From Antedon mediterranea (lineage: Eukaryota; Animalia; Echinodermata), in the NCBI RefSeq assembly GCF_964355755.1, contig NC_092675.1:30414912-30478911 (forward strand): a stretch of DNA of 64,000 bases, given 5' to 3'. Shown here one piece after another: positions 3,675 to 64,000 of the stretch (positions are counted from its first letter, which is position 1; every line of letters starts with the position of its first letter). The translations under genes were made by a program, and so were the position numbers. The notes under the pieces were generated by a model, which ran no database searches, had not been told where the DNA came from, and saw nothing but the letters and a program-made list of their open reading frames with translations.

Positions 3675-6600
3675 TTACTGAACACTTTCATAAATGTCGC
3701 ATGATCCAGCAGCGCAGACGTTTGCCATTTCATAACACAACTCGTAATGCTTCTGTGGGAAAAAAACAACATTAGTTAACTAACAGATATCGAAATCTGC
3801 TTTTAAGGCCTTGTCAATCAATCAAAATTAGATAAATATTACGAAATGGAAAAAAGTTTAATATATAGTAACACTTTTTAGTAGTAAGTTTTAAATTCAA
3901 TGGTCTGGTTTCATATTTGTTTCCACCTCATAAGACCATACGCAAGCACGAAGACAATATTGGGGTTTTTTTTTTGGAATACACGCGATTTGATATTTTG
4001 AATGTTATCTCATTTTATATTTATATATTATATAAACCCCAATATTGTCTCCGTGCTTGCGTATGATCTTTTGAGATGGAATTACGTGGTATTATAAATG
4101 CTAAGGTTGCTTAATTATGAATAAAGTATAACGTAACTTGTGTGTATACATAACCTAGTTTATCAATACCGTGACAATCTACAATAAAACGTTACCTTTG
4201 TATCAAATAACGATGGAGAAACGCGTTTGATACGTTTCACTGTGTGGTAGACATCAACCAACGCGTCTTCATTCATCTTACGAACGATTATGTCCACTGC
4301 ACAGAAAAATCCACTTCGACTCTCGTCCCTTGAGTTACAATAAAAACAAAATATAACAGAATTACCCATTAAGATTGTTTTACTTAGGAAGAATCGTTGA
4401 CAAACAGAGAATGTGGATAATATTCATATATGAAGTATCGTGAATTTAGTTGTTCAGTTAACAACTTCTTCTTATACCTGTGTTGGATTAGTAATATCCA
4501 CTTGTATGCATTGTTGTTATGATTGAATTGTGCAATTGCAATTTACAGACAATTTTAAATAAAAAAGAAATCATCAAATGAAATTATTATAGCCTAGTCA
4601 TGTGTTATGTTGTAATCTGGATTATTGACGATATGTGAGTTTATGTGGTATAGTCTATTATTATGTTTTCGACATAAAAGTTTAATCAGTTTAAGTTTGT
4701 TAACTAGATTAGTCAAAACTAAGAAATTCATGCTTATCAAAATTAGAGTGGATTTCAACGATCATGTGACCGAATTACAAGCAGAATAGTTACTTACAAA
4801 CTAAAAACTGTAACATAGTCATCTCGATTATTAGTTCGTTGAACTTCTCTGACATCGTCACAGAATTGTTTAAAGTATCCAAGAGATGAAGGTTTCTGTG
4901 ATTCTTTAGGCCAGTCCAGAAATGTCAGGTGACATATCTCACGTGGTTTTGCATGATTCTGATTATTAAGTAATGTACAATAAAGTAGTGTTTTATCATA
5001 GGAAAATCTATTACTATAATATTATTAATAATTCTTTTTTTGCATTAAAAATAGACAGGATTGTATGCATTTTTCATATAAACTGGCCAATGCGAGAATT
5101 ACCTCATACTAATATATTATTTATTTCACTATGATGCAATCTTTTACAGCTTGACCAGTATTTTACATAGGTTTGAATAGTGTTATGATATTCTTCTTTT
5201 ACCTACTTACTTTAGTCAATTTTAGTGTTCGTTTTAAAACATAATCGTGCTTCTCAGAAGATAGAACTTCAACTGCAAATTGACCTTGTGTCATCTTACG
5301 TTCAGGAACAAGTGTAGCAATTCTCTAAATTGGAAATATCATAACTTGTATTTATTATGAAAAACCCTATTATAGATTAATAATGTTTAACAGTCAGTCA
5401 AGGAAAAGAAAAAATCCATCCATGAAGATTTAACAATTTAATCTGTATTTTAAATTTTATAAAAATCTAAATTAAATAATCACACTAATCTTATCATACA
5501 ATTTACTTTACCTTATAAACCTGCTCTTCGTCATCTAACATCACCACTGTATATGACTTGTAGTCATAAATCATCTCCCAGAAATTGGAAAATTCACTTA
5601 GCATTGATTCTCTTGGCACAAGATATTCATGCTGTGACTAACACAAAGAACATTACATTACTTATAAAATGCCCAACATGGAGTTAATAAATATATAATA
5701 GTAATCCTAACGACAATTTGAATTTAAGTTAGGCCTATGTATTATATTAAATTTCACCTTACCTTGGTACTCTTCGTATTGGAATATACAACATCTTCTG
5801 ACTCAACACCAATCAATAGAGGTTCTGCAACATTCACTATCAAATACAAAATCAACTTGAAAGAACATATATAAAACTATCTTAAACGGTTAATATCAAT
5901 TATAGAGTTAGTTTACTTATATAGTGACCATTTACCACTTACATTGCAGTGTTTTATCACTTTGTGTTTGCTTTGGAAGAAGAGCTTCAATGTTCTGTAA
6001 AAGACATAATAAATAAATAATGAAATTGTAGTAATCACTCTTAGCATGTTATATATATCATTGTAGTTTCATTTAACATGTACACATTAAAAATACTTTT
6101 TCTCAAGTAATGTCCAACCCCTAAAAAGTTTGTGTGATAAATCATGGTTTTAGTACAATCAATTAGATTCCTCTATGTATGCATGTAATCTTTCAAATGT
6201 AAAGTTTAATAGAATAAGCATAAGTTATGTCACCATACATTTATCTGTTCTTGAATAACTGGTCTTCCAAGTAAACTGTTTGTGTTTTTTATTTCTTTGT
6301 ATCGTTCAGAAATATCTGTTGATGGTATGCATGTTGCTTCACAAAATAAACACTCCAAAATCATCTCGTAGATAAACACATACTGGTTCTGAAAAAACAA
6401 AAACCATTGGCATGCAATTTACCCAAATAAAACTGTGAAAATGGAACATACTGGTTCTAAAAATTTAATACGACAATTAACGTCTTCATAACTTTTTTTA
6501 ACTGTTTAAAATGATAACAAGCTACATACCTCTTTCAAACGAATATGAGGGCAGCTACTAAGTGTATCTTTTACAAAGTTGAAAACATCAATCTCACTGC

Positions 6601-9600
6601 TTTCTTTAGCCAAATCTAGCATTGCGTTTACGGCGATGACAGTTCCAATTTTGTGGCAATCGGTACTTTGTAAGAGATAATAAATAGTTGATATTTATGT
6701 CGACCATATTATTACAAACTAAAATCGACTCATTAGATTTCCTTTTATGACATGACAACATACAGAGAAATAATGCAAAGTAAATGAACTTTTAATACCT
6801 ATAGACAAGTATTGGTCCAACTCCAAAGTCTTTCTTAGCTTTCCTTAAACTGTGTGTAAACTCAATAAGATGTGCAGACGTGTCCATAACATCTCCAGGC
6901 CATGCAGTGCAGTTATATTGATGGACAACACGAGGCGGCGATTCACGATTTTCCTGCGTAAAGAAGGTTAGTTATTGGCACTTTTTTTTTTCATAAATCA
7001 CGTTTGAATAATCATTTCTGATATATGTATATATCTATTAATTATAATAATAAATAAATAAATATTTCTTAACATTACCGTCAGAATTTCGAACTTGCTG
7101 GTTGTAAAACCATTGTCTTTTAATTGATCTTCAAGTTTTCTAACAGACACCTTTCCATATTTGGTGTTCATGTATCCAGTTCCTTTTTGCCAAAATGAAT
7201 TAACTTTGGTCTTTAAGGAGGAAATAGAACAAATGCTGGTCAGTGGATCCAATAAGAGAATTATAACAGAAGGCACTACTGTAACAATTACTCTGGAAAG
7301 AACTAATACTAACCAGTCTCCGTAGGAGTGGAGTGGAGCTGTGGCTTGGTGGTTATGATGCTTGGCTACCAATCTAAGGGTCCTGGGTTCAAGTCCTGTC
7401 ATATGTCAGGGTTTTTTTTCTCATGACAATTTACAACTCCACTCCACTCCCAAAGACTTAATAATAAGTCTTTGTTTATGTAGAGCATCTTGTGTATATG
7501 TTTGTCTTGTGAAATTTTAAATAGTTTATCCTGTAATTGGCGTGTTACTCGCTGTTGGATGAGTATGATATAAAAAAAAAAAAAAAAAAAAAAAATAGCG
7601 AGTGAGTGGCTAAGCGGTTAAGACAGTGGAACCGTAATACCAATAGCCATAACATCGGCAAGGTTACGAACCTCACTCGCTCCATGATACCGGTGGTAGA
7701 ACGTGTCTTAGATACGACTATAAACCGTAGTTCCAGATCTGTACACATCTAGCTCATGTGTACTTCACCTTGTACATCTTTCTAGACGAGTAGGGGGTTA
7801 CCCCGGTGTACTAGTATACACTCAGACACTGTCACACACATCCATTCATTGCCATTGTCATTGTCAACTCTTATTATATGTGTAGTTACTGTTTATTCCC
7901 AACTATATATCTATATTATTTGGAAAGCTTTTGACTACACACATACCTTGTCACCATCAAATGTACTATTAATTATTATATCGATGTTTTCTTTAATAAT
8001 AATTTCTAATAACTGTTTTCCTTGTCCATTACCTGTTAAGAAATTGAGTGCATGGTGTGCATATTTAATATATTCAATGAATAATAATTGACATACAGAA
8101 ATGAATTATCGCAGATTTAGATAAATATCGTTAAATATTTCATAATTATTTTATTCTAGTAATAATTATTTGTTGTAAAACATTATAATTTTAGCTAGAA
8201 TACAGTATAATAATGTTCTCACCATGAAAAGCAATATATGCATTCGATTTGTTCTAAGCATAAAAAGATAATTATCAATTATAATCGATTTAAATTGAAA
8301 ATGAATAAAAAAATATTTCAAATAATATATACATTTTGTGAAATTTAGATACAGAGGTGGTTTTACACATACACTGTTGATAATAATGTTATAACCTACA
8401 TTAATGTAGCAGGCGTTTGAACTGTGAGATTCACCATCTAGACGGAGACGAGCATACTCACTCTGGAGTTCCTATTTCAAATAAAAGTAAACGTTTTCTT
8501 TATGTTCTTCAGTTTATGTTACTTCTTAAGTTAGTTATATCTATGTTGTATTTGTTAACGCACTGTAATACAATTTCTGAATATCAGTTTTTTAAAATAA
8601 AAAACAAATGTTTTTATTTACTTTTCTAGATTTTAATGTGTTTCTTTTCTTGATTTACCTCAAACTCTGACCTAAACGTAAAGCTTGTTCCTTGTTTTCT
8701 GTTTCTGATGTACATGTGTAAATCCTTTATCTTGACAGGTCGATTGTAATCAATAAATTCCATAGCAACAGGATTCAATTGGTTTGCAATCACATAACCG
8801 TCTTGCATTTCTAATAGAAATAAATCACTTGACATTTATCAGTAATGACGAATTTATGTTAGTGAATTGTTGAGACATCGTGATATTTTTAGAAACATCA
8901 ATTCGCTAAATAAGCATTTCTTGTCTTCATCAAAAAATGTATTTATTTGTAAGTATAAAGATACCGTCATTAGTAACCAAGTAATCACATATATAGCTAA
9001 ATAATACTATATATTTGCATATATATACTGTATTAGTGCCAAATAGGGCCTATTGAAATTGAATAACTCAAATCAGAATCTAGGCCAAAAAACTTTTAGA
9101 GAAATGCAAGTGGTCATTAAGAAATACTTAAATTACTAGAATGAAATATATATATGTGTACACACCTATGTTATTGTCTATTTCATCTGTAATCTTCTTT
9201 GATCTTAATGTACTATAGTATTGAGAGAATGCTAAATTATTATATTAAAGAGATAACGTATTATAATGCCATATTCGTTAACAATGTATATAACTCAATC
9301 AATTAACCATAAATAACTTATCAACATTTTATTTGTTTGACATACACAGCTGATTGGTCGTATATACGTCGTATGTTTTTAAAGTTAATCAAAGGTGTGC
9401 TAGCTTACAACATTACTTACCTTTTTCTTTTGTAGTGCAACTTTTGTAAAACGACTACAATAATTAGGATGACGACACACGAGGTTAAAAGGCCAACTAT
9501 GCACCAAACGAAAACTTCTAAAGTCGTTTAAAATACAAAAATAGCTCCATAATTTTGTTAATAATAATATCCTGGATTTATATAGCGCTTAATGTTGTGA

Positions 9601-12600
9601 AACCTCTAAGCGCTCAACATTATTACCGGCCCCAGTCATTTTTTTTGGGATCAAACACGTAGGCCTATATATGGAGACATACTCCCATAATGCAGCTAGT
9701 AATCAGCGCAAAGTTGTGTCTTGATCAAACCGGGGTTCCCTGGGTGAAGAGAGGCAAACGTAAGTAAAGTATCTTCGCTAAGGATACAAGCAATGCGGTC
9801 AGAGTTGGATTCGAACCTCAAACGATCAGTAGTCGAACGTCCAACACACTGTGCCACACGCCCTTACGGCAGTCATTGTGGAGTTGAAAGTATGGTGTAA
9901 TTTCAAAAATACAAATACATTTAAAATAGAAATGGTTAAAACATGATAGTAATCACCTACTTGTATGTTTGAATGTAATCACAGTAAAGTCCTTTTTAGG
10001 ACCGATTCCTTTTGAAGTTCTTGCTTCAATCTCAAATGTATACATCTTAGTTGTGTCAATTCCATCTATGGTAGTTTGTGTTTCTGTATATCCCGTATTA
10101 TTCTCTTTAAGTTCCAATCCATCAAGAAACAGTTTATAATCGTAGGTTATTAAACCTTTTCTGTTGCCACATTTTGGAGGTTTCCATGATAAACTAATCG
10201 AGTTAATTGTTACAGACACAACTTGAAGTGATGTTGGAGATCCAGTTGGAACTAAATAAATAAAATAAATTTTCACAATAATTATTACCGCTATTACTCT
10301 AAATCTAAGTATTATTATGTTTTATCAAATACACTTTCGTAGGCCTAAGCTTCTAATACCGTAGACTAGAAGAGCACTAATAATCAATAAACTGTTCAAA
10401 ATTGTATTATGCCTACTTTAATCTATTTAATTTATCTACAAATTGTTTTATTTCGTATGCCGTAAGGTTTAAAATACTTACCACCTTCTTCTGTTTGTAC
10501 TGTATGAATATCTGATGGTTGTTTAGCTGAGTTGGATACTGAGATTACATGGATTTCATATTTGGAATATGCACTCAGATTTGAAATGATATACGAAGAA
10601 ATGTCGAAAGGACCTTCTTCTACGGCGTTCACATGTACGTCCTCGCACATATCAGCTTGTATTAGTTGGTAAGTGACATTGTACATGACAGGACAGTCTC
10701 CATTTTCCACTTCATTCCAAGTCAGGGAAATATTATTTGTCCCAGTAGTAACATTTATTTCATCAATTTTGCTTGGAACTAATAATGCATATTTTAAAAA
10801 TCAATTATAAAAAGTAAAGTTTAATTTATTGAGTAGAGAGTAGGCCTAGTTACAAAATAATCAGTTTACAACATTCTTATATAGCTATTATTTTTAACAG
10901 TCTGAGAGTAATGTTGAAAAAAATGGAGGTGGGTGGGTGATGAGATCGATAGGTCCAATCTTACTGAATCTAAATGGTAATACGGGTACACAGAATGTTT
11001 AACTTCCAAAACAGCATACGATTGAAAATTACGGCTATTAGTTTAAAAGAGATTTGTTTGACGTGTGTGTAAAGCAGTAGAGGCTACTGTCGTCTGTTTC
11101 CCACTGTGAGGGATGAAAAAACTTTTAGTTTTGAGAATTCATAAACTAATTAATACTAGGTATAATGCTAGATATGAAGAATTTTCATAAAAATAATGTG
11201 AATAAAATAAAAAATTATTACGCTTAAAGTTCGATTAGCGACAAAATGAATTGGTTTACCATTCGCGTGAGTTTCAACTGTTTCAATATTACTCCATGGT
11301 CCTTTGAATCCACCGTTGTTCTCTATTCGTACTTTGCATGTATACAACGTGCACGTTGTTAATCCATCAATTGTAGTCGATGTAACATCACTAACAGTGA
11401 TAGTTCTAGATTCGGAATCTGACTCACAATATACATCGTAATGAAAAATGTTGCACTGTATTTTCTCTGGATCATTATCAATTTTCTGCGTAAAAAAAAA
11501 CACACACATAACATATTCAATATCAATTAATAAAAGGCTGTAATTTATGATAACATAAACATGTGTACATTTGGGGGACATCAATTTCAATGTAATATAT
11601 TGATAATGATAAAGTATTTAAAATAATTTCTAATATCATACATTTTAATACTAAACAAAATTACAGAATTATCAACTCACCTTCCATGTTATGATTAATG
11701 AAGAAGAACTATCTGCCGAAACTGTAATATGTGGAGATACCAATGGACCTATAAACAAAATGTACCAATGTTAACCACAATGTTCACATATTTCTATTTT
11801 AATACGTACTCTTTTCCTGTTTATATTATGAAGGTTATAATTGATTTTTCTCACTTGAACATATAGTTGTTTCTGTCACAACTTGACTGTCTGGTCCACA
11901 CACATCTTGTCCGCCGATGTTCTTACAGACATGAACTTTGACCTCAATTGTTCGATTTGGCGGTAACCCAGTGATTGTAAAGACGTCATCAGTTGTTGTG
12001 ATTGTTGTAAATGTTGATTCTTCTTCACTTTTATATAACACTTGATAAGATGAAGCTGGTCCAGTTCCATAATCCTCACCAAAAGTCCAATTATATGAGA
12101 TGATCATATTGGTGGCTGTGACGTCAATGAATTTAATTTGTTTGAACAAGTAGGGCAAAGCTATGGGAATGAACGTTCAGATTTTATTTACCGTCAGCAA
12201 ATACTGATAATATTAGAGTTAGCACACACAGATCAATTCAAGTACGGTTATTTATTCTTTTAACAGTAAACCGTACATGTGTTCTGTTTTCATGACACTC
12301 CTTATCATGTAAATTGCGCATGTTTATAGTACGACTTCTCTTTCTAGATTGAAACATGTGAGAAGGAATATTATTTACAGAATGTATACTGGTAGAATTT
12401 AGAATTAGATAAAATGTTGATAGGGCGCATTATACTTACCACACACTGTATTATCTTTATAGTATTATTTTGTTTCTTTTTCTTACTATTTAGTATTTGT
12501 AATCAATGTGTGTGGTAAACAAATAAAAAATATTGCACATATAAAAAGGTTATCACATAAAAAGAACATCTTATATTAAAATGGAATTGGATAAAGTACA

Positions 12601-15306
12601 TAATATGAAAATGAGAAAAACATTGATTAATGCTCACCTATCTGGCAGTCGTTGCCACCCCATCCATCTTCACAGTTTCCACTATTACAGTAACCCGTAT
12701 TTTTATCACATGAGTATGACGTTGCACAGTGACAACTATACTGACAAAATTCACCAAACTTTCCATCAGGGCATGTCACGGGATCTGAAGAAAACAATTA
12801 TGAAAGATGTACTATGGATTTTATCAGTTCAGACTACTGGTTGGAAAGATGTTTTAACTGGCAAATTCAGGATCGAATGTTAAGAAATAAATATTTACCA
12901 AGACATTTGTTTCCCTCAAATGCGTTGATACATGTAGCAGCTCCACCTAAACATCCTCTTGAGTTGTCACAATTTGAACTGCAGCGACATTCTTGACTAC
13001 ACCCTGCACCGTATCTAGTCCCTGCACATGCTATTTTAAATAAATCAAAATAATAAGTAACTTTTATATCATGACTTGTAGCATTACTATTTAAAGTAAT
13101 ATTTTAAAGACAAACATACGACACACCTTGCTCACATGTATCACCATGGAAACCTGCATTACACGAACATCCAGCAGGATCTGGAGGACACAACATGTTT
13201 CCTGTGCATGATCCGCCGGTCGCGCACTTAATGCCGCATGTCCGGCCCCAGAGATTGTTTCCACATCCTGAAAAATAATAATGTTAGTTTACAACATTCA
13301 GTATTTTAAATGTAACTTATAAAAAAGTGCAATTCAGTTTAATAATAAAATGAAATTGGAATATGATTTTTTTATTTGGTTAGTCAGATTTTATACCAAA
13401 CGCTGACGCAAACATTTTGACAAATCGTGGACATATCGTATTTAACATTTTAATCTGAAACTTACTTTTTGTTGTCATAAGGTCAGTATCTGGCTTAGAA
13501 ATATTCCATTCATCAACCAAAAAAGTTTCAAATTGTTTCCATTTTGAAAGAAGGTAGGGGTGTGTGTAACTTGAGTTATTTTAGATTTGAGTGGTGCGTT
13601 TGGTTTAACAATTTATAAAATTATCCCTTCAAATACTCAATACAGTTTCCAGCAAAAATGTATAATAATTTTATCTGATTTAACTTCAATTCCATAATGA
13701 AATACTGGAATACTATAATATAGTGTAAATTCCAAATTCAAAATACCTTCAGAACAATCAGAACCTTTAAATCCTGGTGGACATACACATAATCCAGTCA
13801 CGTGATCACATATTCCTCCATTATAACAAACTGGACAATTGTCTTTACACTGTGGTCCATGTTTTCTTGTAGGACAACCTTCAGTAAAATAACACGACTT
13901 TATAATATGTTATAATATGTTCTGCTTTTTATACCAGTATCTTGAAAATAGTCTATTTACAAATTATAGAGATAGACGGATATTAAAACATATTTTTTAA
14001 CCCTAACCAATGCAATACAAATATCATTGACCCACCTCTGACAATCAATCTCATCATTGCATGTTTTCCGTTTCTTTCTTTGTAACATTCATATATTCCA
14101 GCATCACTTGTTCTGATATTATTAATAGTCAATGTATCTTTACCATTGCCTTCTGGTATGTCAACGTTGTTTAATTTCCATTTTAATTCTGATACACTGA
14201 TTGTGGTACGGACTTGTAAAGTCACGTGATCACCAATACTGGCTGTAATAAATCGTTGGATTGGAGTGACGTCAGCTAAAGAAATTTGATTTTAAAATTA
14301 AACAATTTGTATTAAAAGGTAAAGGTAAGAAACCCCAACCTTCTTCAGATCTATTGACCACGTTTAACCACTTTTCCCCGTTTTTTTTTTTGCAGATAAA
14401 AATCAGATAATTATCGTAGGCTGGTGTGGTGTAAAATAAAGATAATACTCTTCAAATCACAAATCTATAATGGTTATTAATGTGGTGTTTTCCTAACTTT
14501 ACTAAACATGTAAATATCAAAGTTGTAATGGTAATATCAAAATATCATTACTCAACATTGTTATGTTACTAAAGTAAAAATGGTGTATTAAAAAGAATGA
14601 CATCCAGAATTTCCCTTATTTAAATTGAGAAATACAACTTACCATTTTCAGGTAATATGATGATAGATATATCTTGTGATCTTGAATCTTTTGTAGCAGT
14701 CGCGAAGAAAGCGCCAACTTTTTCAGCACCCGATCCTGCATTGATTCTAACACGTAATGCGCTATATTCAGTTGTATCTTTTTGCTGTACTGTCGATCCT
14801 GTGGGGAACATGGTACCAGAAGGTACAGGTGCAGGCGTGTTTCCAGGTGCGTTAGCATCGTACCATGTTACAGGTCTTCCTTGTAACCCAGTGCCTGTGT
14901 CAACCTCTCTTCCAAGTGATATGTCTTGCGTTTTATCTGGTGTGCCAGCATAACCTCCAAATCTTGGTCCTATAGTTATTTCTTCAATGTCAACAGTTGG
15001 GTTGTCACACCACATAGTAAAATCAAGGATTTCATCTAAGTTAATTAAAGGAGATGATTATTGGTTGTGTGTGTGTGTGAATTATTTAGATTTACTGAAT
15101 ATAATAGATCGATATTCTATCAACAGAGGAAATAAAATACCATTTTGCAATTCATAACTTTACACTTTTAAAAATATTCTTTACACTATTAGGCTATTTG
15201 CTTGTCTAGCCTCTTTTATAATATAATTACATTGCTTACCTGATTGTACTTTACAAAACAAGACTAGGATAAACATGTTCACACGAATAACGTCTAACGT
15301 TAACAT
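3675..15306 (-). CDS. Gene A: multi-exon RPTP-like pseudophosphatase; SP, N-terminal Ig-like, Ig, 4 EGF-rich exons, 4 FN3, TM, degenerate PTP D1 and D2
   Basis: GT-AG exons spliced in frame: SP 15240-15306; N-domain 14643-15035; Ig 14036-14275; EGF 13747-13878, 13127-13267, 12899-13030, 12638-12784; FN3 11855-12160, 11681-11748+11260-11485, 10482-10778, 9961-10251; TM 9421-9517 (VFVWCIVGLLTSCVVILIIVVVLQKLHYKRKR); 9166-9203; 8659-8810; D1 8400-8471, 8223-8253, 7947-8032, 7079-7210, 6799-6953, 6530-6665, 6239-6388; D2 5943-5994, 5763-5837, 5521-5637, 5211-5324, 4798-4958, 4196-4328; last exon 3675-3752 ends SCDIYESVQ*. Confidence 0.88.
3923..4080. mobile_element. MITE-like inverted repeat in last intron of gene A
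   Basis: ~45-bp arms: CCACCTCATAAGACCATACGCAAGCACGAAGACAATATTGGGGTT and AACCCCAATATTGTCTCCGTGCTTGCGTATGATCTTTTGAGATGG. Confidence 0.65.
7329..7595 (+). mobile_element. tRNA-derived SINE with poly(A) tail
   Basis: A-box-like TGGCTTGGTGG, B-box GGTTCAAGTCC, unrelated body, A-run at ~7572-7595. Confidence 0.6.
7597..7865 (+). mobile_element. tRNA-derived SINE with Nin-domain-like core
   Basis: TGGCTAAGCGG A-box, degenerate B-box, core GACTATAAACCG...GAGTAGGGGGTTACCCCGGTG, CATT-type tail. Confidence 0.55.
9558..9865 (-). mobile_element. tRNA-derived SINE with Deu-domain-like core and L2-like 3' tail
   Basis: Minus strand: GTGGCACAGTG...GGTTCGAATCC head, GCCTCTCTTCACCCAGG core, tail AGCGCTTAGAG...AAGCGCTATATAAAT followed by (ATT)n. 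A related copy is at ~48700-48850. Confidence 0.65.
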
Positions 15307-15396
15307 GCTTGTCAATTGCTTACACTTCTAAATAAATAACTCCTTCGTTTCATAGACCAGATTTCATGGATTCAGTAGGCCTATTAGTAGAGCTAC

Positions 15397-15417
15397 GAAA
15401 TGAAACACGGAAATGAT
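15397..15417. promoter_or_regulatory. Conserved proximal promoter motif (IRF/ETS composite-like), gene A
   Basis: Identical to 1125-1145; about 90 bp upstream of the ATG at 15306. Confidence 0.5.
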
Positions 15418-21372: not shown

Positions 21373-22431
21373 GTAAGTTGTATTAATTAGTTTTATCATA
21401 TTTATAGTTTCATTATTCGAAATAAATATCATTATATATTGTTATTCATGCTGGTAATGGATTGAAATGATACATTTTACCCTGTTGAATTGTGGTGTAT
21501 TAGTTCCTGGTTATACTCTACATACTGATGTATGTCTATGCGCTTATCACACCCTTAACTATATTCACTGTTTGAATAGCCTTAACCTAACTCGGTTCAA
21601 AAGTCCGTAAACACAGACGAAGAGGAAATAATTGTGTTCCTTGTTTCATTTGTTAGTGGATAGATGCAATAGGAATGAGGATATCTATGTTTGTCTAAAA
21701 TGTATAGATACAAGTATATTTAATGAGTTTGAAAATAACGGATAGAATTGTGAGAAACTACAACTATCATGAGCCAAATGTCAATATTCAGGGATATTCG
21801 TGTGAACATTTCCATCCTAACTTTAATCGTGTTTGTTACGGTAAGATCAGGTAAGCAACTCGAGTAGTTATGTAATGGTTGTCAAATGTTGGCAAAGAAT
21901 ACTTTGTAATGACAATGTCAGTGAAATGTTGAATTGGTAGGAACGTATTAGCTTCAGGCTCTATATAATGCCGAATGCGCTCAATGGTCCTGGACAGTTT
22001 AAAGGAATATAGTTGTTTAGTTCCTTCTGATTTCCATATTTTAATCGATTGGATATTTGTTCTCCTTTCATACGTTTCTATGTACATGTACGCGTTTTAT
22101 GGATTAATTATTTGGTGTAAATTTACCCGTTTGTTTAAATCAGTTATAATAACACCATAGATTTACCCGAATAGTAGGTTAACGGGTATAGGCCCCACTC
22201 TATTATCCACGTAACGCACTTAAAGGAGCATAGTACCAATACTACAATTATTAACATTATTATAAAAATGCAACAAAATAGAGTGACAGTTGAAATTTAT
22301 CATTTTTAAAATATTATATAGAGAGTAGAGTATTTTGACATTTCAATAATTAAGGACTTGACAGAAAGTTTGCATTATCAATCCTAGTGGGACTCTATCT
22401 ATTTTATTAATAAAACAGGCCTATCATTTTT

Positions 22432-23470
22432 TACCTCCGCCAAGGAGGTATTGTAATCGATCGCGTGTGTTTGTCTGTCTGTCTGTCTGTTTGTTTTTTT
22501 TAGCAGGATTACTCAAAAAGTAATTACAAGATCTTTACCAAAATGAATGTACAGATAGATATGTGGTCAAGGACCACTCCATTAGGACCACGGTCCCAAT
22601 TCTGGACCACTTTTAGTATACTTTTCAGACCTGCTAGTGTTAAAAGATAGGACAGAATTTTTCAAAAGCCGGCGAGCAGTCTTAAAGGCCAGGTGCGGGC
22701 AAAAAATTTATATTGATCATACATTCCAATAATTATCGATCTATAGTTTCCCCTATGTTTCATAATTTTTGGGATTTTATTTGTGTTACAGGAGCTTTTT
22801 AAAAATTAGCACTTTCATATCAGTGGGGGGATGATAGTTCAAATTACACAGTAAAATCTCTATTCTTTTGTACACAAATTTTGAAAATAGAGAGGCATTT
22901 TAAAAAGCTATGAAAAATAAATGGTGTGGTAAAAAATGTTATCAGATGACTAAATATAGGTAATATAATTTGAATTTTACATTTCTGGTATTTTTATTCA
23001 CCCAACTTCAGAATTTTATTTTCATGCTATAGCAAAAATTATCCACCGTATATCCACCATCTTTTTTCACCTTCTAGGGAGTCACCAGACATGTTATTAC
23101 ATTATGTTAACTACCTAACTACTGAAAAAAAGTCTTTCTGTTTTTTTTTTGGCAGAATTTTGCCAAATTTTGTATTTGACCATATTAGGGGAAATTCATG
23201 GTTTTTCATCTTGATTTCTGTTACAAATATTTGATTTATGTACAATTAACAAGATTTTTATATTTAAAATTCATGCTAGTACCTGAGCTTTAAAGTAACA
23301 AGTAAATTGCATTTTCTCGAGAACTACATGTCCAAAAAACTTTATTTTTGTACAAGAGGCAGTTTGTTGTGATTTGTAATTTAAAAACATAATTTGATTA
23401 ATTTACAGGTTTTTTAATACGAGTAGTTTTAAAAAACCTATTTATTTTAAAATTCACCCGTTTGTTTTTG
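22432..23470. mobile_element. Helentron/DINE-like non-autonomous element start plus a second dispersed repeat
   Basis: TTTTACCTCCGCCAAGGAGG hairpin, (GTCT)n microsatellite, TTAGCAGGATTACTCAAAAAG. Segments ~22628-22676 and ~23310-23360 recur inverted at ~48960-49062. Confidence 0.5.
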
Positions 23471-28933: not shown

Positions 28934-28970
<37 letters not shown>

Positions 28971-35747: not shown

Positions 35748-35779
<32 letters not shown>

Positions 35780-52700: not shown

Positions 52701-55700
52701 TGACCAAACAAAGGAGCAGGATACACATTTGCCTTGCCACAGACGACCGGGTGCTCAGAGACAACAACCAAGACAGAGGCACCCCAAAGATAATGCTGGC
52801 CAGGAAAAGGTATACAAAACAATTCTAAGTCTAAAAAACTTTAAGAAACCTCATGATTTCCATATGCCTTAATAATAAATGTGTTTTTAATAATTTTTTA
52901 AAAGTATCAACAGTTTTGCAAAATCTTATAGAGCTCGGTAGAGCATTCCACAGACGAGGAGCAGTAACGGAGAATGCTCTTTCACCCCATGAGTGGTGAG
53001 ACTTAGGCTGATGTAGAAGCAGCGAGTCACTAGAACGCAGATTACGTCCGGGAACATACAGCCTAAGCATGTCAGAAATATATTCAGGAGCCATGCCATT
53101 TATAGACTTAAAAACAAAGAGTAATATTTTAAAAACAATGCGGTACCTAACAGGGAGCCAATGCAATATTTCCAAAGTATTTGATATGTGTCCATATCTT
53201 GGTAATTTTTTAACAACTCGTGCCGCTGTATTTTGAATCAGTTGGAGCCTGTGGAGTTGTTTTTGTGGTAGCCCGTATAGCAAAGAGTTTCCCATATCTA
53301 GTCGTGAAGTGACAAAAGCATGAACAAGTTGTTTAGCTGCTGTCTCATTCATAAACTTGCGAATCCTTCGAATGTTTCGCAAGTGAAAAGACGACGCAGA
53401 AATAGTTTTGGAGATATGAGAAATCATAGTCATACCCACATCCATTTCAACCTGCCTAGCCGGGTCAATTTGGGTTTCACCAATGTGAATAAAGCTTGGT
53501 GGCAGTTTTTCCAACTGCTGTTTTGATCCAAAGAAAACAAATTCTGTTTTTTCATCATTTAATTTAAGAAAGTTGTTTTTCATCCAGACACGCAATTCAT
53601 AGATACAATGTTGGAGCAATTCCAAAGAAATGATCAATGTTGTATATTAATCAGACTGTTGTTTTTTTACTTTAAAAATTACATTTTAAGTACTTCATCC
53701 AAATATACACATTTAAAATTGTTAGGCCTAAAATTGTTATTATAGGTTTTGATCGACCTAATTAAGAGGGAGCTTTTCATTTGCGACGATTTACAACCTA
53801 TCAAGAAATCAAGCGAAGAAGCACGTCCTAATACTTTCACATACTAACTATTCACTAGTTTTTATGTCGTCACAAATCAAAAACTCCATAATATTTATTC
53901 ATAATATGCACAACACAAATATTATTTCGATAGTACTTCTATTAGATTCTTCATTCTTATATTTTACTTATTAACATAATTTGATGATATAAGACATTTT
54001 ATTCATAGCAATGTTATGTTACCGTACATTTATCTCTTCTTGAATAACAGGTCTTCCTAGTATACTTCTTTTGATTTGTATTTCCTTGTACCGGTCAGGG
54101 AAGTGTGCCAATGATATGTTTGTTGCTCCGCAAAACAAACACTCCAAAATCATCTCATAGATAAATGCATACTGGTTCTGGAAAAAAATATAAACAATCA
54201 TTTTCTTCCATGCAGTACATGATTAAAACTGAATAAAATAATAACGATACATACCTCTTTCAAACGAATATGAGGACAGCTACTAAGTGTTTCTTTGACA
54301 AAGTTGAAAACATCAATCTCACTGCTTTCTTCTGCCATATCGAGAATTGCGTTTACGACGATGACAGTTCCGGTTCTCTGGCAATCGGTACTTTGTCACA
54401 AAAAGAGAAATATGGAAGTTTTAACAGGTTCAATTCACTAAGAAATAATGTAAAATAAATGGATGTTTAAAATACCTATACACAAGTGTTGGTCCAACTC
54501 CAAATTCTTTCTTAGCTTTCCTTAAACTGTGTGTAAACTCAATAAGATGTGCAGACGTGTCTATAACATCTCCAGGCCATGCAGTGCAGTTATATTGATG
54601 GACAACACGACGCTCTGAATCACTTTCATTTTTCTGCAAAGTAATAAACAAAATGGATTTAGTGAGTACATTGTGATATTGAAGTAAATCAAGATAGCGG
54701 TAATGAAATCAGTAACATTAGTTATGTTGCTAACTAGAAAAATATTGTAATATATACTAAATATTTATCAAAAATTACCAGCATAATTTCGAACATTTTG
54801 ATTGTAAAACCATTGTCATTCTGTTTATCTTCCAGTTTTCGAACAGACATCTTTCCATATTTGGTCTTTACGTATCCAGTTTCATCATGCAAAAAAATGA
54901 CCTTTGAAATGCGTAAACAATATTTTAATAGTTCATTATTAATATTTTTAAAAATGTATTAATTATATTAAAATTTAAAAAATTTTGTCTTCTAAATTCC
55001 TTCAAAACACTTCGAGAGAATCAACACCATTACTATACTGTGGGAAGTATTGGATAACAAAACTTCATACCTTGTCGCCATCACATGCAATATTAACTAT
55101 TACATTCAGGTTTTCTTGCCAAAAAATTTCCAATAATTTTTTTTCATTGCCTGTTAAAAGCAATAAAGCAGAACAAGCATTAAATAAGCCCATTTTTTAA
55201 ACTGGTGCTACAGGACTTTTTTATTTTATAAGATGATATTTAATAACTTATAAGTGCTGACCGGGTAACTATTTATTAAATAGTATTTTCTTGTTTTGTA
55301 AAATTGTTCTTTCTATTATATATTCTTTTTGTTCTAAGAATAATAATATTGTTCTCACCATGATAAGCAATGTATGCATTCGGTTTTCCCTGAGAATTAG
55401 AATATGTTGGAAATACAATTAAAAGTGAATAGAAAATAATAGTAAAAAGTTAATAGTGAAAAGAAAATTGTCAACAATGTACATTACTGAAGATTACAGA
55501 TTGTACATATGATGATATGATATACTTACATTGATGTAGCAGGCGTTTGGATTGTCACATTTACCATCTGCACGGCAACATGCATATTGACTATGGAGAT
55601 CCTATAGCAAAAACACAACAACATACAGATATTGCCTGCTTAGAGGTGAAATATAAGATTTGGTAATGAGGTAATGATATTTTGCTCAAGGAAAAATATA

Positions 55701-58700
55701 TTTTCCAAAGTGCAAGCTGAGGAAAATATATTATTCTCGAGAGCAAAATATCATTCTCAAGGGTATGTCAAATCTTATATTTCACCGATATAAAAGGGGA
55801 TATATGTTATATTATATAGCCAAGAACCAGTAGAATATCTGCTGGGTCGGCTAGTTAGTCCTATGTAATTTTAAATAAGCCTACCTAGTTAGGCTACCTT
55901 GCGAAAAATAAACTCAAATAAAATATTCATTCGGGAGGACCACGCGTTGTACATTAACAAAATAATTTCCATAAATAATTCTACACTTTACAGTAATAAT
56001 ATTATTACTTTACAGTAAACATTGTACTTTTGTTCTGTGCAGAAATGCCAATGACGGGCTACTGTTTTAGTCCACATCAAAGAATGGTCAACTGTGTTTA
56101 TAGCCTCAACTATGTAATACTAATGATGGGCAACTGTTAGTTTTGCATGATTCTATTCCTTTTACCATGTTCTATATTATTATTATATTAGATTGAAGCC
56201 ATCAAACAAATTCATCTTCATTTCTGTTGTTGTGTAACATTAAACATTTTTAAACAATTATAACCGTTACATTCTTTATATTTAGTACCCAGCTGTGATT
56301 CATGAATGTTAAGACGTTCCTTTTTTAAAATTATACCTTTCAGTAATATTCTTAATTCAGTTATTTTGTATTACCTCAAACTCTGATTTAAAAGTAAAGA
56401 TTCTTCCTTGTTTTCTATTTTTGATGTACGTGTGCAGATCTTTCAGCTTGACAGGTTGATTGTGATCAGTCACAGTTGACTCCATGGCAACTGCTTGAAA
56501 GTCATTCGCAACCATATTTAAACCGTCTTGCATTTCTGATAAAATTGGAAAAAGTGTAATATAAAAATAAATAAAACTAATATAAAAATATATTTTAACA
56601 TGCTGTAAATTTTTATTTTATCTAACAAATTAATTTTTGTTAAGTCAATTAAATACCAACCTTATAGACAATAAAGACAGAAAAGAATGTATCACTGTGT
56701 ATAAGTATAAGTGAATTTCAAAAGCAACAATGTTGAACTGACTGTTATGTTGGTTGGGATTTAAGAATTGATTTAAGATTATTAAGCATTATTATCAATA
56801 TTTTTGTTGTAAGAAAGACGAATTGTGTAAAAAGGTTCTATCTCGTAGTACTTATACATCGGTACGTTTTACTTACCTATGTTGCCATCTACTTCTGTTT
56901 TCTTCTTCGATTTTATTGTAGCAACGATAACAAAGACACCGATAACGAAGACACCAACTAAAATGATAACTACCAACAAACCTGTTACAAACGAAAAACA
57001 GAAAGCATACAAAAACAAAAACAAAAATAAGGGATTAGTTTTATAGATTATTGTAGAACAGAACGAATCAAAGTGCTGTGGAAAATACAAATAATATAAT
57101 AGAAGTTTATTTTATTAATCATTAATAGGCATACCCGGCACAAGGGATTATGCCTTCCTCCATAGCCTTTTTTTTTTTTAAATTCTATTTTCTTTTGTCC
57201 ATCCAACAATCATCATAATTTTAATTATTTTACCTTATCATTTCTGTATACTATTTTGTATTGTATTGCTATGGAGGAAAATAAATGTCTTTTGAAAATA
57301 AATGAAATGAAATAGCCTACTTGTATGTTTGAATGCAGTCACAGTAATGGATGTTTTAGGACCGATTCCCTTTGATGTTCTTGCTTCAATCTCAAATGTA
57401 TAAACTTTGGTTGTGTCAATTCCATCTATGGTTGTTTGTGTTTCTGTATATCCCGTCTTAGACTCTTTAAGTTCCAATCCATCAAGAAACAGTTTATACT
57501 CATAGGTTATTGAACCTTTTCTGTTGCCACATTTTGGAGGTTTCCATGATAAACTAATCGATTTAGATTTTGCAGACACAACTTGAAGTGATGCTGGAGA
57601 TCCAATTGGAACTATAAATATATACAATAATGTCATGTAGAAATACCGATTACTCTAAATGTTTAAGATCAGTAAACTTATACAATACTTATAATAATGA
57701 TGTTATTTCTGTGACAAGAGGCAGAACATAATATTTTAAAGGGAAAACATCATAGATTTTGTTAAATGATATACTGACTGTCTTCTCCAGTTTGAACGAC
57801 AAGCTTATCTGCTGATGGCTGTCTTGCTCCATCTTCATTGGATAACGATGTGACCTGGATTTCATATTTGGAATATGCACTCAGATTGGAAATGATATAC
57901 GAAGAAGTGTCGAAAGGGCCTTCTTCTACGGCGTCCACATGTACGTCCTCACACATATCAGCTTGTATTAGTTGGTAAGTGACGTTGTACGTAACAGGAC
58001 AGTCTCCATTTTCCACTTCGTTCCAAGTCAACGAAATATTATTTGTCCCAGTAGTAACATCTATCCCATCAATTTTGTTTGGAACTATATAAATGCATAA
58101 CATTAATTAGTAAATATTTTGTGTATAATTAACGTTTCATTGGTTGGATCTAGAAAAATGGTAAAAGTTAAAAATCATCTATGTTAGTTACGTTACTTTG
58201 GTTTAATAAATATTATTATAACATTCATACAGTGATTATTTACAATAATGATCATAATACAGAAAAATGATTTAAAACGTTCTCTACGAGGAAAGATTAA
58301 TTTAAATCTTCCCTATTTCTACTACACCTTATCATCATTAACATCGTATCCTTACCCGGACATTGTGTTGGGAATCGTGTTTTAACTTGACTGTCCGGTC
58401 CACAAACATCTCGTCCGACGATGTTCTTACACACACGAACTTTCACCTCAATTGTTTGATTTGGCGGTAACCCAGTAATTGTAAAGACGTAATCAGTTGT
58501 TGTGATTGTTGTAAATGTTGATTCTTCTTCACTTTTATATAACACTTTATAAGATGACGCTGGTCCAGTTCCATAATCTTCACCAAAAGTCCAATTATAC
58601 GAGATAGTCATATTGGTGGCGGTAACATCAATAATTTTAACTTGCTTAAATAAATACGGTAAAGCTATGTAAATGAATAAAGATTACAGTTAACATGCAT

Positions 58701-61700
58701 TTGAAAAGACCAATACAAAATAGGGTGTGTGTTGTTCAGTTAACATGCATTGAAAAGACCAATACAAAATAGGGTGTGTGTTGTACAGTTAACATGCATT
58801 TGAAAAGACCAATACAAAATAGGGTGTGTGTTGTTCAGTTAACATGCATTGAAAAGACCAATACAAAATAGGGTGTGTGTTGTTCAGTTAACATGCATTT
58901 AAAAAGACCAATACAAAATAGGGTGTGTGTTGTTCAGTTAACATGCATTGAAAAGACCAATACAAAATAGGGTGTGTGTTGTACAGTTAACATGCATTTG
59001 AAAAGACCAATACAAAATAGGGTGTGTGTTGTTCAGTTAACATGCATTGAAAAGACCAATACAAAATAGGGTGTGTGTTGTTCAGTTAACATGCATTTAA
59101 AAAGACCAATACAAAATAGGGTGTGTGTTGTTCAGTTAACATGCATGGAAAAGACCAATACAAAATAGGGTGTGTGTTGTACAGTTAACATGCATTTGAA
59201 AAGACCAATACAAAATAGGATGTGTGTTGTTCAGTTAACATGCATTGAAAAGACCAATACAAAATAGGGTGTGTGTTGTTTTGAGAAGAGGCTTATATTT
59301 TTTGTTCTTACATGACTCTTATTTAATGCTTTTTGGCTAATATCCTAGATGTCTGGATTTGTAAAGAAATTTTATTTATTATACTAATGCTCACCTATCT
59401 GGCAGTCGATACCAGCCCATCCATCTTCACAATCCCAGCAGTAACCCGTATCTTTATCACATGACGATGACGTTTTACAATGACAACTATACTGACAAAA
59501 TTCACCAAACTTTCCATCAGGGCATGTCACATGATCTTCGGAAAAACAGAAAGAAAATGTAAAACAGTATGCAACAAAGAAACCTTGCATACGACGTCGG
59601 CATATAGAATTGCTGTTTATATTGTACAATGATAGAGTAACGCAAATTGCCAGTTAGTGATAACTGGACGTGAATTAAGTGTAATAATACATTTAATTTA
59701 CCAAGACATTTGTTTCCTTCAAATCCATTGTTACATGTAGCTCCTTCTCGACATCCTTTTTCTTTGTCACAATCAGTTGAACTACAGTGACATTCTTGAC
59801 TACAACCTGCACCATACGTAGATCCTGTACATGCTATTTTGTGAAAGTATAATTTTAATAAACGTGTATGTAAATCCTGTCTCCATTTCTGTAGAAATGC
59901 CTGCTTGAGATGAAAACAGGTTATTAATAATTATATTGAAATTATAATTGTAACCTACCTTCATCACATGTAGTACCATGGAATCCTGTCGCACACGCAC
60001 AGCCAACTGGATCTGGAGGACACAGTAAACTCTGACAAGGAGAGGAGCAATAAATACTACATGACCGACCATAATATCCGGTACTACATCCTATAACATG
60101 ATAATATTAAAATGTCACTAATGTAAAAAAACACTAAATATAGCATAACTAGAAAACAATACTTTTGTACTTAATTACCTTCTGAGCAATCAGCACCTTT
60201 AAATCCTGCTGGACAGATACATAATCCAGTCACGTGGTCACATAATCCTCCATTATAACAAACCGGACAATTGTCATTACACTCTGCTCCATGTTTTCTT
60301 GTGGGACAACCTGATTTTTAGTAAATATATTATATTTTTTTTTTACTTTTTGAATCGTTTTCAATTATAACTAAATTTACCTGGTGTAAAAAATGAACAC
60401 ATGTATACTTGGTTCTGTATCAACCAACTGAAGATTTAAAAAAATGTCAAAAACTAACCTCTGACAATCATTCTCATCAGCGCATGTTTTCCGTTTCTGT
60501 CTTTGTAACATTCGTATATTCCAGCATCACTTGTTCTGATATTATTAATAGTCAATGTATCTTTACCATTGCCTTTTGGTATGTCAACGTTGTTTAATTT
60601 CCATTTTAATTCTGATGCATTGATTGTGGTACTGACTTCTAACGTCACGTGATCACCAATACTAACGGTAATAGATCGACGTTGGGGAGTGACGTCAGCT
60701 GGAAATATAATATAATAAGTTGTCGAAGTTACAAGATAATAAAATTCGGAGCTGGAAAATATCAACAAATGTTGCGAGTAGTTAATTATATTATACCCAC
60801 CTGCCTCCACTCATTTATATTTCTACTAATCTATTACAAAAACATATCTCACCATTTTTAGACAATATGATGAAAGGTATGTGTTGAGATATTGAATCTT
60901 TAGTTGCAGTGGCAAAGAAAGCACCGACTTTTTCAGCGTCTGACACAAGAATATCAATTGTTATGGAATGTACACTTGACGTAACTCGTGTTCTTACAGT
61001 TGATTGGTCCGGGAACATCGTTCCAGAAGGAACCAAGCCACCATCATTCCAATTTACTGCTCTTCCATATAACCCAGTTCCTGTATCGCTTTCTCTTCCA
61101 AGTACGATATCAGTAGTTTTGTCAGGAAAAGTGGTATAACCACCAAACATGGTTGATTCCATCGTAGAATCAATGTCCACGGTTGGATCTGGACACATAA
61201 CGGTTAGATCAAGGATTCCATCTAAAAAGTAATTTATTTTTAAGTTATTTTGTTTGTTTTAACATTAGCATATTATTTTCGGGTTTTTTTTTCTTTTAAA
61301 AGGAAGTAAAATATTTTTAAAAAGTATCATAGTCATAGTTTGTCATTGGATTAGTGTTATTTGTGCGTGCCATGGTCTTCAGAAGCATAATTTTGTAAAA
61401 ATAATATATTTAATAAATTGTGAAAATAATTAATACTATGGCAAAATACACCCTAATGATATATTTACCATGCAAAGAACATCGAACACCAGCTTCACTA
61501 TTAGGGTCGCAGTCGTGAATTCCAATACCATTTGATGGACATTGATTCAGACCAGTCTCTGTACCAACACATGCAACATTATCCAGCAAAATATCACCAG
61601 ATCCCTGCCCAGATTCCTGCCCAAAATCTGTACCAATTAGTGCTTCGCTGAGGCCTGTGTACAACAAAGAATTGCAGACAACGGTGGCATCTTGAACACC

Positions 61701-64000
61701 CCATGAATCATCACAGATTGTCCCCCATTTACCCTGGTAAAATATCTCGACACGGCCCTCTAAAGCTGTGGTACTTCCAGCAAGACGAACTACAAGATAT
61801 TAATTAACAGTTAACACTTGATTAAACAAAAACTGTCCACGTAAACAACTTAACATTCCACTGTATTCAGTATTTTGTTTCATTATTTTATGTTTACTGT
61901 CGTTTAATAGTGAGTCTGTTACATTCCTAAATGTATAGTTTTACCAACACAGAGAGGGAATTTCTTCCGTTCACTAAGGCCTTTAATATTTTGAAAATAG
62001 TGTAAAACATTAATTTATTTCTAATCTCCTGATTTGTTTGTGGATTTTGAGATCAAACAACGATTACCTATAATTATGTAGACATAGACAACGTATCGTA
62101 AATTATGTCAAAACAGCTTCAGTAAACTAATTGTTAAAATTGAGCATTTATTATTTCATTTTTTAAAAGAAAAAAAACCCATTATGATCATGCTTGATGT
62201 TGTCGAAAGCGACCTCATTTAAACGAGAAAAATATAAAATATTTACTTGATTGGAAGAATGATTGGAATCAATAGCATTAATACATACAATTTGAGCAAG
62301 GTGTTACAAACCTTTTGGCATACAGCGGACTCCAGCATCATTTTGGTGTCCGCACGATGACGTCAGAACACTATGGCCACACAGATGTAATCGTGGCTCA
62401 GTACCAGTACATTGAACACTAGTGAAGTGGATCGGACCGACTCCTTCACCAAATTTAGATCCAGTCACGGCAGAAAGAGCATCCGGGTAGTCTAATTGAC
62501 GACAGACGACTTTTGCATCTTTCTGGTCCCATTCGTTATCGCAAACCGTACCCCATTGACCGTCCTTAAATACTTCAATACGGCCCTCGCTTTCCAGGGT
62601 GCCTCCTCTAAATCGAAGGGTAGCTGTAGGAAAAAACAAACATTGTAAATGTATTATGTGGCAATCATTGGATGAATAGGTCTATACGAATACATGTCGG
62701 AACATTATTATCTGTTTTGCCCTACATCTATATTATAAGTGAGAGAGTTTGTTTGTTTGTTTGTTTGTTTTTTCGTTATACAAATTTGTGTTACTGCACG
62801 TAACCTTACATATTGAGCATCAAAATTACCGCAATTGTACCGGGAAGGTTCTAAACTACATTTGAACATCATCCACCATCTTGGATCCAAGTTAGGGGCT
62901 GAAATGTGGTCAAAATGGCCCACTTTTGATGTTTGTTCGTTATACAAATTTCTGTTCCTGCATGTAACCATACATATGGGTTATCAAAATGATCGCAATT
63001 GTACTGGGAAGGTTTTAAACTTCATTAAAAAAAAGTCCGGGGATTTGGTTGGAGAGGGGGTGGAGGGTTGGGAGATAGGGTGTGAGAGTTGGGGTTCAGG
63101 GTATAGTGGGATTTTGCTTAGGCTAGGGGTAGTAGGCTATCAAATTGACCAGAAATGTGGTAGGAAATTATTAAAGTATTTTAATTATCACTGGGAAGGG
63201 GATGGGAGTTTGGGGTGGGGATGTAGGCCTATCACCATGACTGAAACTGTACTGGAACGGAATGTTTTGATTATGGGTTGGGAGTGATGGCTAACATTAT
63301 TTGTACTGGAACTATCTTAAACACATCACCCAGTATCTGGGGTGTGTTGGGAGGGGGAGGAGGAGCGAAAATACTGGCGTAATGAAGTAGCCTATGATTT
63401 TAATTGTACTAGGAAGATTACTACATTTGAACTCTTCAGGAGAGGAGTTTGTTGATTGTGGCTGGGATGGTAAAAGAAGAAAGAAGGCTGGGGGACCGCA
63501 GTATCAAAATGAGATATTTTAATTATCAGCCAATATGACACCTATTCATTTACACAGATTACAACGTACTTAAACCATAGGCCTATCAGACCCCACTCAT
63601 TTTGAAGCTAACGTTTAATTGAATTTGTTTGTTTTTTTTTCAAAAAGAGTGTGGGGTGTTATTGAAGAAAGATGGAGGTTGATGAGTATATAGTGCATCG
63701 GGCTTTATGTACTGAGAAGGCTTCTCAACACTAATTTTGAAACCCGCCCTGGGGCGGGTATTATTGCTAGTATATCTATATTTATAAAAAGATTTTCTTA
63801 CAAATTCCGCAAACCACGCCAGCGTCTTCTTTATGACTACAATCATGTACATTCAAACCATTGTTGTCACAATCAAGGATATTGCTCTCTGATCCAGAAC
63901 ACGCTACATTATCAAGCAGGATGGGTGAGCCAGCATTCCCTTCACCATATGTGGCACCATTTGGAGCCTGAGTAGCATCTACATACCCTAGCTGACGGCA
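49760..64000 (-). CDS. Gene C (5' end beyond window): SRCR x3 or more, N-terminal Ig-like, Ig, 4 EGF exons, 3 FN3, TM, degenerate PTP D1 and D2 pseudophosphatase
   Basis: SRCR exons 63802-64000 (partial), 62312-62623, 61469-61789 (GRVE..WGTICDD.W); N-domain 60853-61221; Ig 60459-60698; EGF 60179-60310, 59959-60090, 59702-59833, 59395-59535; FN3 58356-58664, 57779-58084, 57321-57611; TM 56877-56981; 56375-56535; D1 55530-55601, 55359-55389, 55071-55150, 54779-54901, 54476-54633, 54255-54390, ~54028-54177; D2 52443-52494, 51908-51984, 51616-51723, 51109-51222, 50641-50801, ~50077-50209; last exon 49760-49840 ends SCDIYESINL*. Confidence 0.87.
52525..53640 (-). mobile_element. 5'-truncated L2-like LINE (RT C-terminal region and 3' tail) in a gene C intron
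   Basis: WMKNNFLKLNDEKTE, AFVTSRLD, LQLIQNTAAR, LHWLPV, RAFSVTAPRLWN; L2-type 3' end GCGCCTTGAGCAC...GTGCGCTATAAAAAT followed by (TTA)n. Confidence 0.88.
55643..55787. mobile_element. Short MITE-like inverted repeat
   Basis: GGTGAAATATAAGATTTG...ATGATATTTTGCTC mirrored by GAGCAAAATATCAT...CAAATCTTATATTTCACC. Confidence 0.55.
58687..59280. repeat. Minisatellite, about 12 copies of a 49-50 bp unit
   Basis: CAGTTAACATGCATT(T)GAAAAGACCAATACAAAATAGGGTGTGTGTTGT(T/A), near-identical copies with no spacers. Confidence 0.95.

Follow-up and report, generated by a model that had tools for sequence, protein, structure and literature searches.

Why should a receptor protein tyrosine phosphatase (RPTP) with a complete catalytic domain stand between two relatives that appear to have lost the means of catalysis? 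This question is raised by a stretch of 64,000 nucleotides from the feather star Antedon mediterranea (contig NC_092675.1, positions 30,414,912 to 30,478,911), hereafter the window, which consists of AT-rich, eukaryotic DNA and in which three RPTP genes, A, B and C, were modelled by hand with GT-AG splice sites. Gene A (3675..15306, minus strand; 29 exons, 1407 amino acids (aa)) comprises a signal peptide, an Ig1-like domain, Ig2, four EGF exons, four FN3 repeats, a transmembrane (TM) segment and a dead first (D1) and second (D2) phosphatase (PTP) domain. Gene B (21769..47633, plus strand; 41 exons, 2269 aa) has a signal peptide, two cassettes resembling the ectodomain of the Tie receptors, eight FN3 repeats, a TM segment, a canonical D1 and an ordinary D2. 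Gene C (49760..64000, minus strand, its 5' end outside the window; at least 28 exons, at least 1541 aa) carries at least three SRCR domains, one Tie cassette, three FN3 repeats, a TM segment, a dead D1 and a D2. The splice models agree with the orientation given in the first-pass annotation of this DNA: A lies head to head with B across a gap of 6.5 kb, and C tail to tail with B. None of the three models contains an internal stop, in line with the statement made there that the spliced exons of A and C are free of stops and frameshifts.

The D1 of B (41645..44394, plus strand) is canonical, as had been claimed, with KNRY, WPD, HC-x5-R and the Q-loop QTQ all present. Its KNRY exon, encoding the phosphotyrosine-recognition loop (41645..41732, plus strand), has no counterpart in A or C. 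The D2 of B (44507..47633, plus strand) lacks the WPD aspartate and carries a DIYGNFK tail. With its predicted signal peptide, ectodomain, single TM helix and two PTP domains, B has the layout of a classical tandem-domain RPTP. In contrast, the D1 domains of A (6239..8471, minus strand) and C (54028..55601, minus strand) share the same lesions: WPD is changed to WPG, the Q-loop QTQ to LKE, the KNRY exon is gone, and the P-loop, VY-STDC(H/Q)(K/R), is one residue short, with tyrosine at the place of the nucleophilic cysteine. The introns of A and C were searched for a remnant of the KNRY exon and none was found, and the suspicion that the exon had merely been missed there was rejected.

The D2 domains of A (3675..5994, minus strand, including a C-terminal DIYESV tail) and C (49760..52494, minus strand, with a DIYESI tail) lack KNRY and the DYINAS-type motif, and WPK stands in place of WPD, so that the general acid is lost. 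At the nucleophile position A has phenylalanine, while C and the Antedon database protein P0007 keep the C-x5-R register (CSLDESR in C), as ordinary inactive D2 domains do. The earlier view that motifs are lost in both domains of A and C is correct as regards the lesions of D1 and D2 and has to be amended for this retained register in the D2 of C. Judged by their motifs, both genes qualify as putative double-pseudophosphatase RPTPs, in which the catalytic machinery is missing from D1 as well as D2. The C-terminal tails differ likewise, since all dead copies have DIYES(V/I) and the active ones YGNF; by the consensus motifs for SH2 domains, the change from YGNF to YES(V/I) would alter the SH2 preference. 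A predicted model of the C-terminal half of C's D1 together with its D2, made from an alignment of active phosphatases and lacking the N-terminal half of D1, showed a tandem PTP fold (predicted local distance difference test score, pLDDT, 86) with a match to LAR (E 6e-22).

Evidence that A and C are real genes was drawn from transcripts, reading frames and substitution rates. Reads were mapped to positions 1-7030 of the window from one RNA run of unknown tissue (X1), recognised as RNA solely through its splice joints, and one DNA run (X2). In X1 the exons are covered and the depth falls to about 2 in two intron-only bins. At least six of the nine introns of A in the mapped stretch, among them introns of its D2, are joined, four of the joints with exact splice ends and two off by a few letters; none of these joints occurs in X2. 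Two spliced dead-type transcripts are present in X1, one about 98% like A and the other like P0007. For the A-type introns, these joints bear out the splice models, for which an RNA check had been proposed earlier.

The ratio of nonsynonymous to synonymous substitution rates (dN/dS) between the cytoplasmic exons of A and C was 0.57 (0.44-0.76), 0.52 (p 6e-5), 0.60 (p 0.001) and 0.67 (0.50-0.91) with four methods, and every interval or test excludes 1. The dN/dS check suggested in the first-pass annotation thus separates the two domains: the whole cytoplasm and D2 (0.43-0.62, below 1 by all methods) are constrained, but D1 on its own is not below 1, and its N-terminal half has a value of about 1.0. 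Of 500 neutral simulation runs at 0.13 changes per site, none kept the frame free of stops, and of 500 at 0.05 only 4 did so; all length differences between the cytoplasmic exons of A and C, seen in 7 of 15 exons, are multiples of three. The open frames of the dead genes exceed chance expectation. Because dN/dS lies below 1, the frames are open beyond the neutral simulation and dead-type transcripts are spliced, A and C appear to be maintained under purifying but relaxed selection, the relaxation falling on D1.

The NCBI protein models represent these genes in pieces only. The final 839 aa of B are identical, letter for letter, to A. mediterranea protein P0001, and the final 413 aa of C to P0003; one exon of B is 100% identical to an A. 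mediterranea NCBI protein and 80% identical to a protein of Anneissia japonica. That A and C are pseudogenes or an annotation artefact was rejected in view of the open frames, the agreeing NCBI models and the RNA joints.

The ectodomain proved to be Tie-like and joined to tandem PTP domains, as had been noticed from the sequence alone. In the cassette, an all-beta domain at the N terminus is followed by an Ig domain, then by four EGF exons and FN3 repeats; homology to human Tie2 extends from the last part of Ig1 up to and including EGF3. Searches with phmmer against the Tie2 structure 2gy5 gave E 7e-31 for Antedon P0004 and E 2e-42 for Anneissia P0005, and the best Foldseek match of the predicted model of P0005 was Tie2 (E 7e-28). 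For the first approximately 100 residues of Ig1 no sequence match was found in Pfam or PDB. The cassette is indeed shared by A, B and C, as the first reading of the locus held, although not in equal form: B has two (cassette 1, 24107..27206, with the Ig1-like domain, Ig2 and EGF1-4, and cassette 2, 31209..34111, both on the plus strand), and C adds at least three SRCR domains. Anneissia P0006 is doubled in the same way as B. The alternative that B represents two separate genes was rejected, since both cassettes splice in phase and P0006 is equally doubled.

The three SRCR exons ahead of C's Ig1 (61469..64000, minus strand; Pfam SRCR E 1e-26, 5e-30 and 3e-15) probably belong to C, a joining based on the phase match with its Ig1 exon; no signal-peptide exon was found between them and Ig1. 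Read-through beyond the last SRCR exon (61413-61469, minus strand) leads into a short hydrophobic stretch followed by a stop, and a separate membrane-anchored SRCR product is possible there. C also lacks FN3b. Identity of Ig1 among the copies is about 60%, and the dN/dS of the ectodomain, Ig1 included, is 0.3-0.5, a value that does not indicate diversifying selection.

How, then, do the outer parts of A and B come to be so alike? The two genes differ at 23 of 155 four-fold sites from Ig2 to FN3b, at 17 of 40 in Ig1 and at 56 of 123 in FN3c,d and the cytoplasm (Fisher's test, p 3e-4 against Ig1 and p 2e-8 against FN3c,d and cytoplasm). The alike stretch covers the Ig2, EGF1-4, FN3a and FN3b exons of A (11260..14275, minus strand) and the region from Ig2 to FN3b in cassette 2 of B (31999..35508, plus strand). 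Identities between A and B and between B and Anneissia were, respectively, 79-82% and 68-69% in Ig2-EGF4, 83% and 52% in FN3a,b, 56% and 52% in FN3c,d, and 40% and 68% in the cytoplasm. When A, both cassettes of B (B1 and B2) and C are compared, no exon is more alike than Ig2, with 87-92% DNA identity. The tract is under purifying selection (dN/dS 0.34-0.50). The introns of the copies do not align (z above 2 in 2 of 53 pairs), whereas simulated introns at similar divergence do (z of 8 or more in 11 of 11). Moreover, an ectodomain tree grouping B1 and B2 with the Anneissia cassettes was rejected by the approximately unbiased (AU) test (p-AU 0.004).

A recent whole-gene duplication as the source of the similarity was rejected, because the flanking domains and the cytoplasm are old and the introns fail to align. 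We infer exon-limited gene conversion between A and B after the split of the two crinoid lineages, and the outer exons of the dead copies were likely kept near those of B through this process. The first domain of the tract, Ig2, is the equivalent of the ligand-binding domain of Tie2, to which both angiopoietins bind (PMC8294587). A separate case concerns one D2 exon (4798-4958 in A, 50641-50801 in C), in which the identity of the two genes reaches 95-98%, with neighbouring exons at 81-93%; a recent local conversion between the two dead genes is the likely cause.

In the D1 tree, as read without the P0007 row, the dead copies group as a single clade with a long stem branch (1.2-1.45 changes per site) within the crinoid B group. 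The clade nests with crinoid B-type domains with a support of 99-100, and the trees place it to within this group. Besides A and C there are dead-type pieces in the Antedon database, P0004 and P0007, which are distinct from both genes. Because all dead copies carry the same lesions and their introns no longer align, the dead state appears to be old. The end of P0004 and the start of P0007 fall in the same P-loop exon, and these pieces may derive from a single dead gene that is split or broken. A fourth paralogue is represented at the left edge of the window by its first, signal-peptide exon (936..1002, minus strand), an 86% DNA match to exon 1 of A that encodes a signal-like peptide of 22 aa and has a GTAAGT donor, and by A-like upstream DNA at 1301-1466 (minus strand). 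X1 has no reads over this first exon, which carries no weight either way. From these traces the cluster is judged to extend leftward beyond the window. The B-like paralogue P0008 has WVD and HCSDGVGR and is perhaps partly disabled. P0004, P0007 and P0008 all come from a contig whose length equals that of the contig of P0001.

WPD and HC-x5-R were present in the first domain of 133 among the 150 HMMER matches listed. The Tie ectodomain was found in 13 among these 150, of which 12 have a canonical D1 and the sole dead one is Antedon P0004. The ten named matches of this type come from starfish (7), sea urchin, amphioxus and scorpion. The Tie-ectodomain RPTPs comprise Anneissia P0006, Patiria P0088, P0090, P0041 and P0143, Asterias P0023, P0024 and P0036, Diadema P0028, Branchiostoma P0050 and Centruroides P0100, labelled automatically in the databases, for instance as 'RPTP T-like' or 'F-like'. 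Since it is found in starfish, sea urchin, amphioxus and scorpion, the architecture appears to be old and not peculiar to this locus. These proteins share with A, B and C the Ig-EGF-FN3 ectodomain and the tandem PTP domains, and differ from A and C in their canonical D1. Some have N-terminal additions, F5/8 or PAN (P0041 of starfish, P0050 of amphioxus), comparable with the SRCR domains of C. Neither this family nor the cluster was found described in the literature that we searched; a 2006 survey of sea-urchin phosphatases by Byrum et al. reportedly may list such architectures.

What might the dead copies do? On the sequence evidence, we give about an even chance to the reading that A and C are decoy pseudophosphatases in the manner of human PTPRU that share the ligand of B. 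A and C would bind the outside partner of B via the conversion-matched exons from Ig2 to FN3b, with Ig2 contacting the ligand as in Tie2, and, being unable to dephosphorylate, they would dampen B as decoys. A shared partner is likely in view of the probable gene conversion that has held their Tie2-like exons close to those of B. The D2, presumably still folded, and the tyrosine of the C-terminal YES(V/I) would offer docking surfaces, competing for the substrates of B or recruiting SH2 proteins.

PTPRU is the closest precedent and was absent from the first-pass annotation. To our knowledge, no other human RPTP has been described in which both domains are dead; PTPRU has the MAM-Ig-FN3 ectodomain of the R2B family. 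Inactive PTPRU binds substrates of the active PTPRK, and a decoy function has been proposed for it (PMC7320164). The likeness lies in a tandem PTP receptor with both domains inactive, the existence of active paralogues and the decoy role proposed in that source for a paralogue's substrates. The differences are considerable: in PTPRU the catalytic cysteine is retained and D1 is 69% identical to that of its paralogues (PMC7320164), whereas A and C have lost the cysteine and an exon, and their identity to B is about 40%. Furthermore, A and C carry a Tie-type ectodomain, are of independent crinoid origin, exist in several dead copies and share a conversion tract with their active neighbour. Orthology of A and C with PTPRU or other R2B members was rejected in view of this ectodomain and the nesting of the dead clade. 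If the decoy reading is right, competition by a pseudoenzyme would be combined with ectodomain matching by gene conversion, two phenomena that were unlinked in the literature searched. The locus adds an independent and more drastic case of a double-dead RPTP, with loss of an exon and of the cysteine, in several copies and beside the active parent.

Several observations weigh against the decoy reading. Homogenisation also affects cassettes within genes, as the pair of B is alike and that of the Anneissia gene is 86% identical, and may thus be a by-product of tandem repeats rather than special to the active-dead pair. A tree grouping B2 alone with the Anneissia cassettes was not rejected (p-AU 0.31). 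As Ig1 lies outside the homogenised region and C has the extra SRCR domains, the ligands may differ. The RNA evidence for dead-type genes comes from one run of unknown tissue, with C outside the mapped stretch. D1 (A-C dN/dS 0.66-0.77) is indistinguishable from neutrality, the interval for the cytoplasm as a whole extends up to 0.91, and open frames could persist only since a premature stop destroys the message. The fold model of C, for its part, leans on active phosphatases in its alignment and is without the first half of D1. Finally, the same active/dead pairing, for which a survey of related genomes had been advised, was not seen: no dead-type orthologue was found outside Antedon, a weak negative given word-limited searches in databases clustered at 50 or 90%.

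The first-pass annotation had read the cluster as a paired immune receptor system, with similar ectodomains and opposite signalling tails. In such a system B would inhibit immune cells, a pathogen would exploit its ectodomain, and A and C would act as counter-receptors in which this ectodomain is combined with a tail that is null or activating, an arrangement that we hold to be unlikely. The model comes from SIGLEC11 and SIGLEC16, which face each other head to head at a distance of about 9 kb and whose ectodomain exons have been converted (PMC5701461). A and B resemble them as head-to-head neighbours a few kb apart with a tract confined to the ectodomain, N-terminal ectodomain exons that are alike by conversion, and unlike cytoplasmic parts (PMC5701461); conversion-matched ectodomains of this type are indicated for A and B, with one of two AU tests significant. 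The SRCR domains of C and the several paralogues within one cluster also fit, and circumstantial support comes from starfish coelomocytes, in which a Tie-2-like kinase and an 'RPTP F-like' protein occur (PMC13409769), two names there apparently fitting Tie-ectodomain starfish proteins, and from sea urchins, in which Tie is expressed in coelomocytes and the axial organ (PMC6494969). In contrast to SIGLEC11/16, an enzyme is here set against a dead enzyme, not an immunoreceptor tyrosine-based inhibitory motif (ITIM) against adaptor-coupled activation, and the introns in the A-B tract cannot be aligned. The likeness of A and B is known from the genes, while their shared ligand and co-expression are putative. 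We looked in the dead genes for a shared ITIM, switch motif (ITSM) or activation motif (ITAM) and for a charged residue in their membrane helices (in A, the TM exon at 9421..9514, minus strand) and found none, and ectodomain dN/dS, Ig1 included, speaks against the immune pairing as well. What speaks for the earlier reading is the active/dead set, the splicing of dead-type genes, the purifying selection on them and the conversion signature; opposite ITIM/ITAM hardware is not supported, and no sign of diversifying selection was seen. Because no conserved ITIM or ITAM and no charged membrane residue were found, A and C do not appear to be classical paired immune receptors.

It is quite unlikely, in our view, that A and C work as adhesion or scaffold receptors in their own right, each binding separate ligands, homogenised passively owing to the tandem layout and with no bearing on B. 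The homogenised cassettes within genes of both crinoids, the divergent Ig1, the SRCR domains and missing FN3b of C, and the altered tail of the dead genes would suit such receptors; the tract, however, spans the equivalent of the Tie2 ligand-binding domain under purifying selection, as shared binding predicts. Very unlikely is that the dead genes are birth-and-death duplicates in slow decay, of which only the ectodomain and its anchor, or nothing, matters while the cytoplasmic domains drift. The near-neutral D1, the long stem of the dead clade, the boundary of P0004 and P0007 within one exon, which may mark a broken copy, and the failure to find an orthologue elsewhere accord with decay, but the D2 is constrained by all methods, all seven exon length differences are in frame, the transcripts are spliced, and the common lesions together with unalignable introns speak for an old dead state.

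A wider extension of the decoy reading may be considered, in which the Tie-ectodomain phosphatases are an old bilaterian family that reads a ligand of the Tie-kinase type and, in feather stars, the conversion-locked dead copies form a third, decoy arm setting the phosphotyrosine threshold of coelomocytes; this is speculative and improbable. If true, one ligand would drive both a kinase and a phosphatase, and a paired-receptor system would have arisen from an enzyme and a pseudoenzyme, not from ITIM and ITAM partners. The ectodomains of Tie1 and Tie2 are homologous to the present cassette in the end of Ig1, Ig2 and three EGF repeats, with FN3 repeats further on. They differ in that a kinase takes the place of the tandem PTP domains, and the cassette here has a fourth EGF exon, is doubled in B and shows no third Ig domain, such as Tie2 possesses (Ig3). 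The widespread Tie-ectodomain phosphatase family, so far under automatic names, is relevant to the question of how Tie signalling arose and how phosphatases control it.

Repetitive elements are found between and within the genes. Fragments of the long interspersed nuclear element (LINE) type with reverse-transcriptase matches and a frame break lie between A and B (16379-18092, plus strand) and in intron 7 of B (27519-30172, minus strand), and a stretch in a C intron (52834-53646, minus strand) resembles a LINE end and has no Pfam match. Another C intron sequence (58685-59279) is a tandem repeat with a period of 99 bases in 6 copies that are 97% alike. Short palindromic elements similar to miniature inverted-repeat transposable elements are located near the start of A (15765-15955) and in a B intron (45465-45635), and a different intron of B (36289-36822) holds two inverted copies of about 175 bases. 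A high-copy repeat at 1881-3525, whose open reading frames have no Pfam match, is deeply covered in both X1 and X2.

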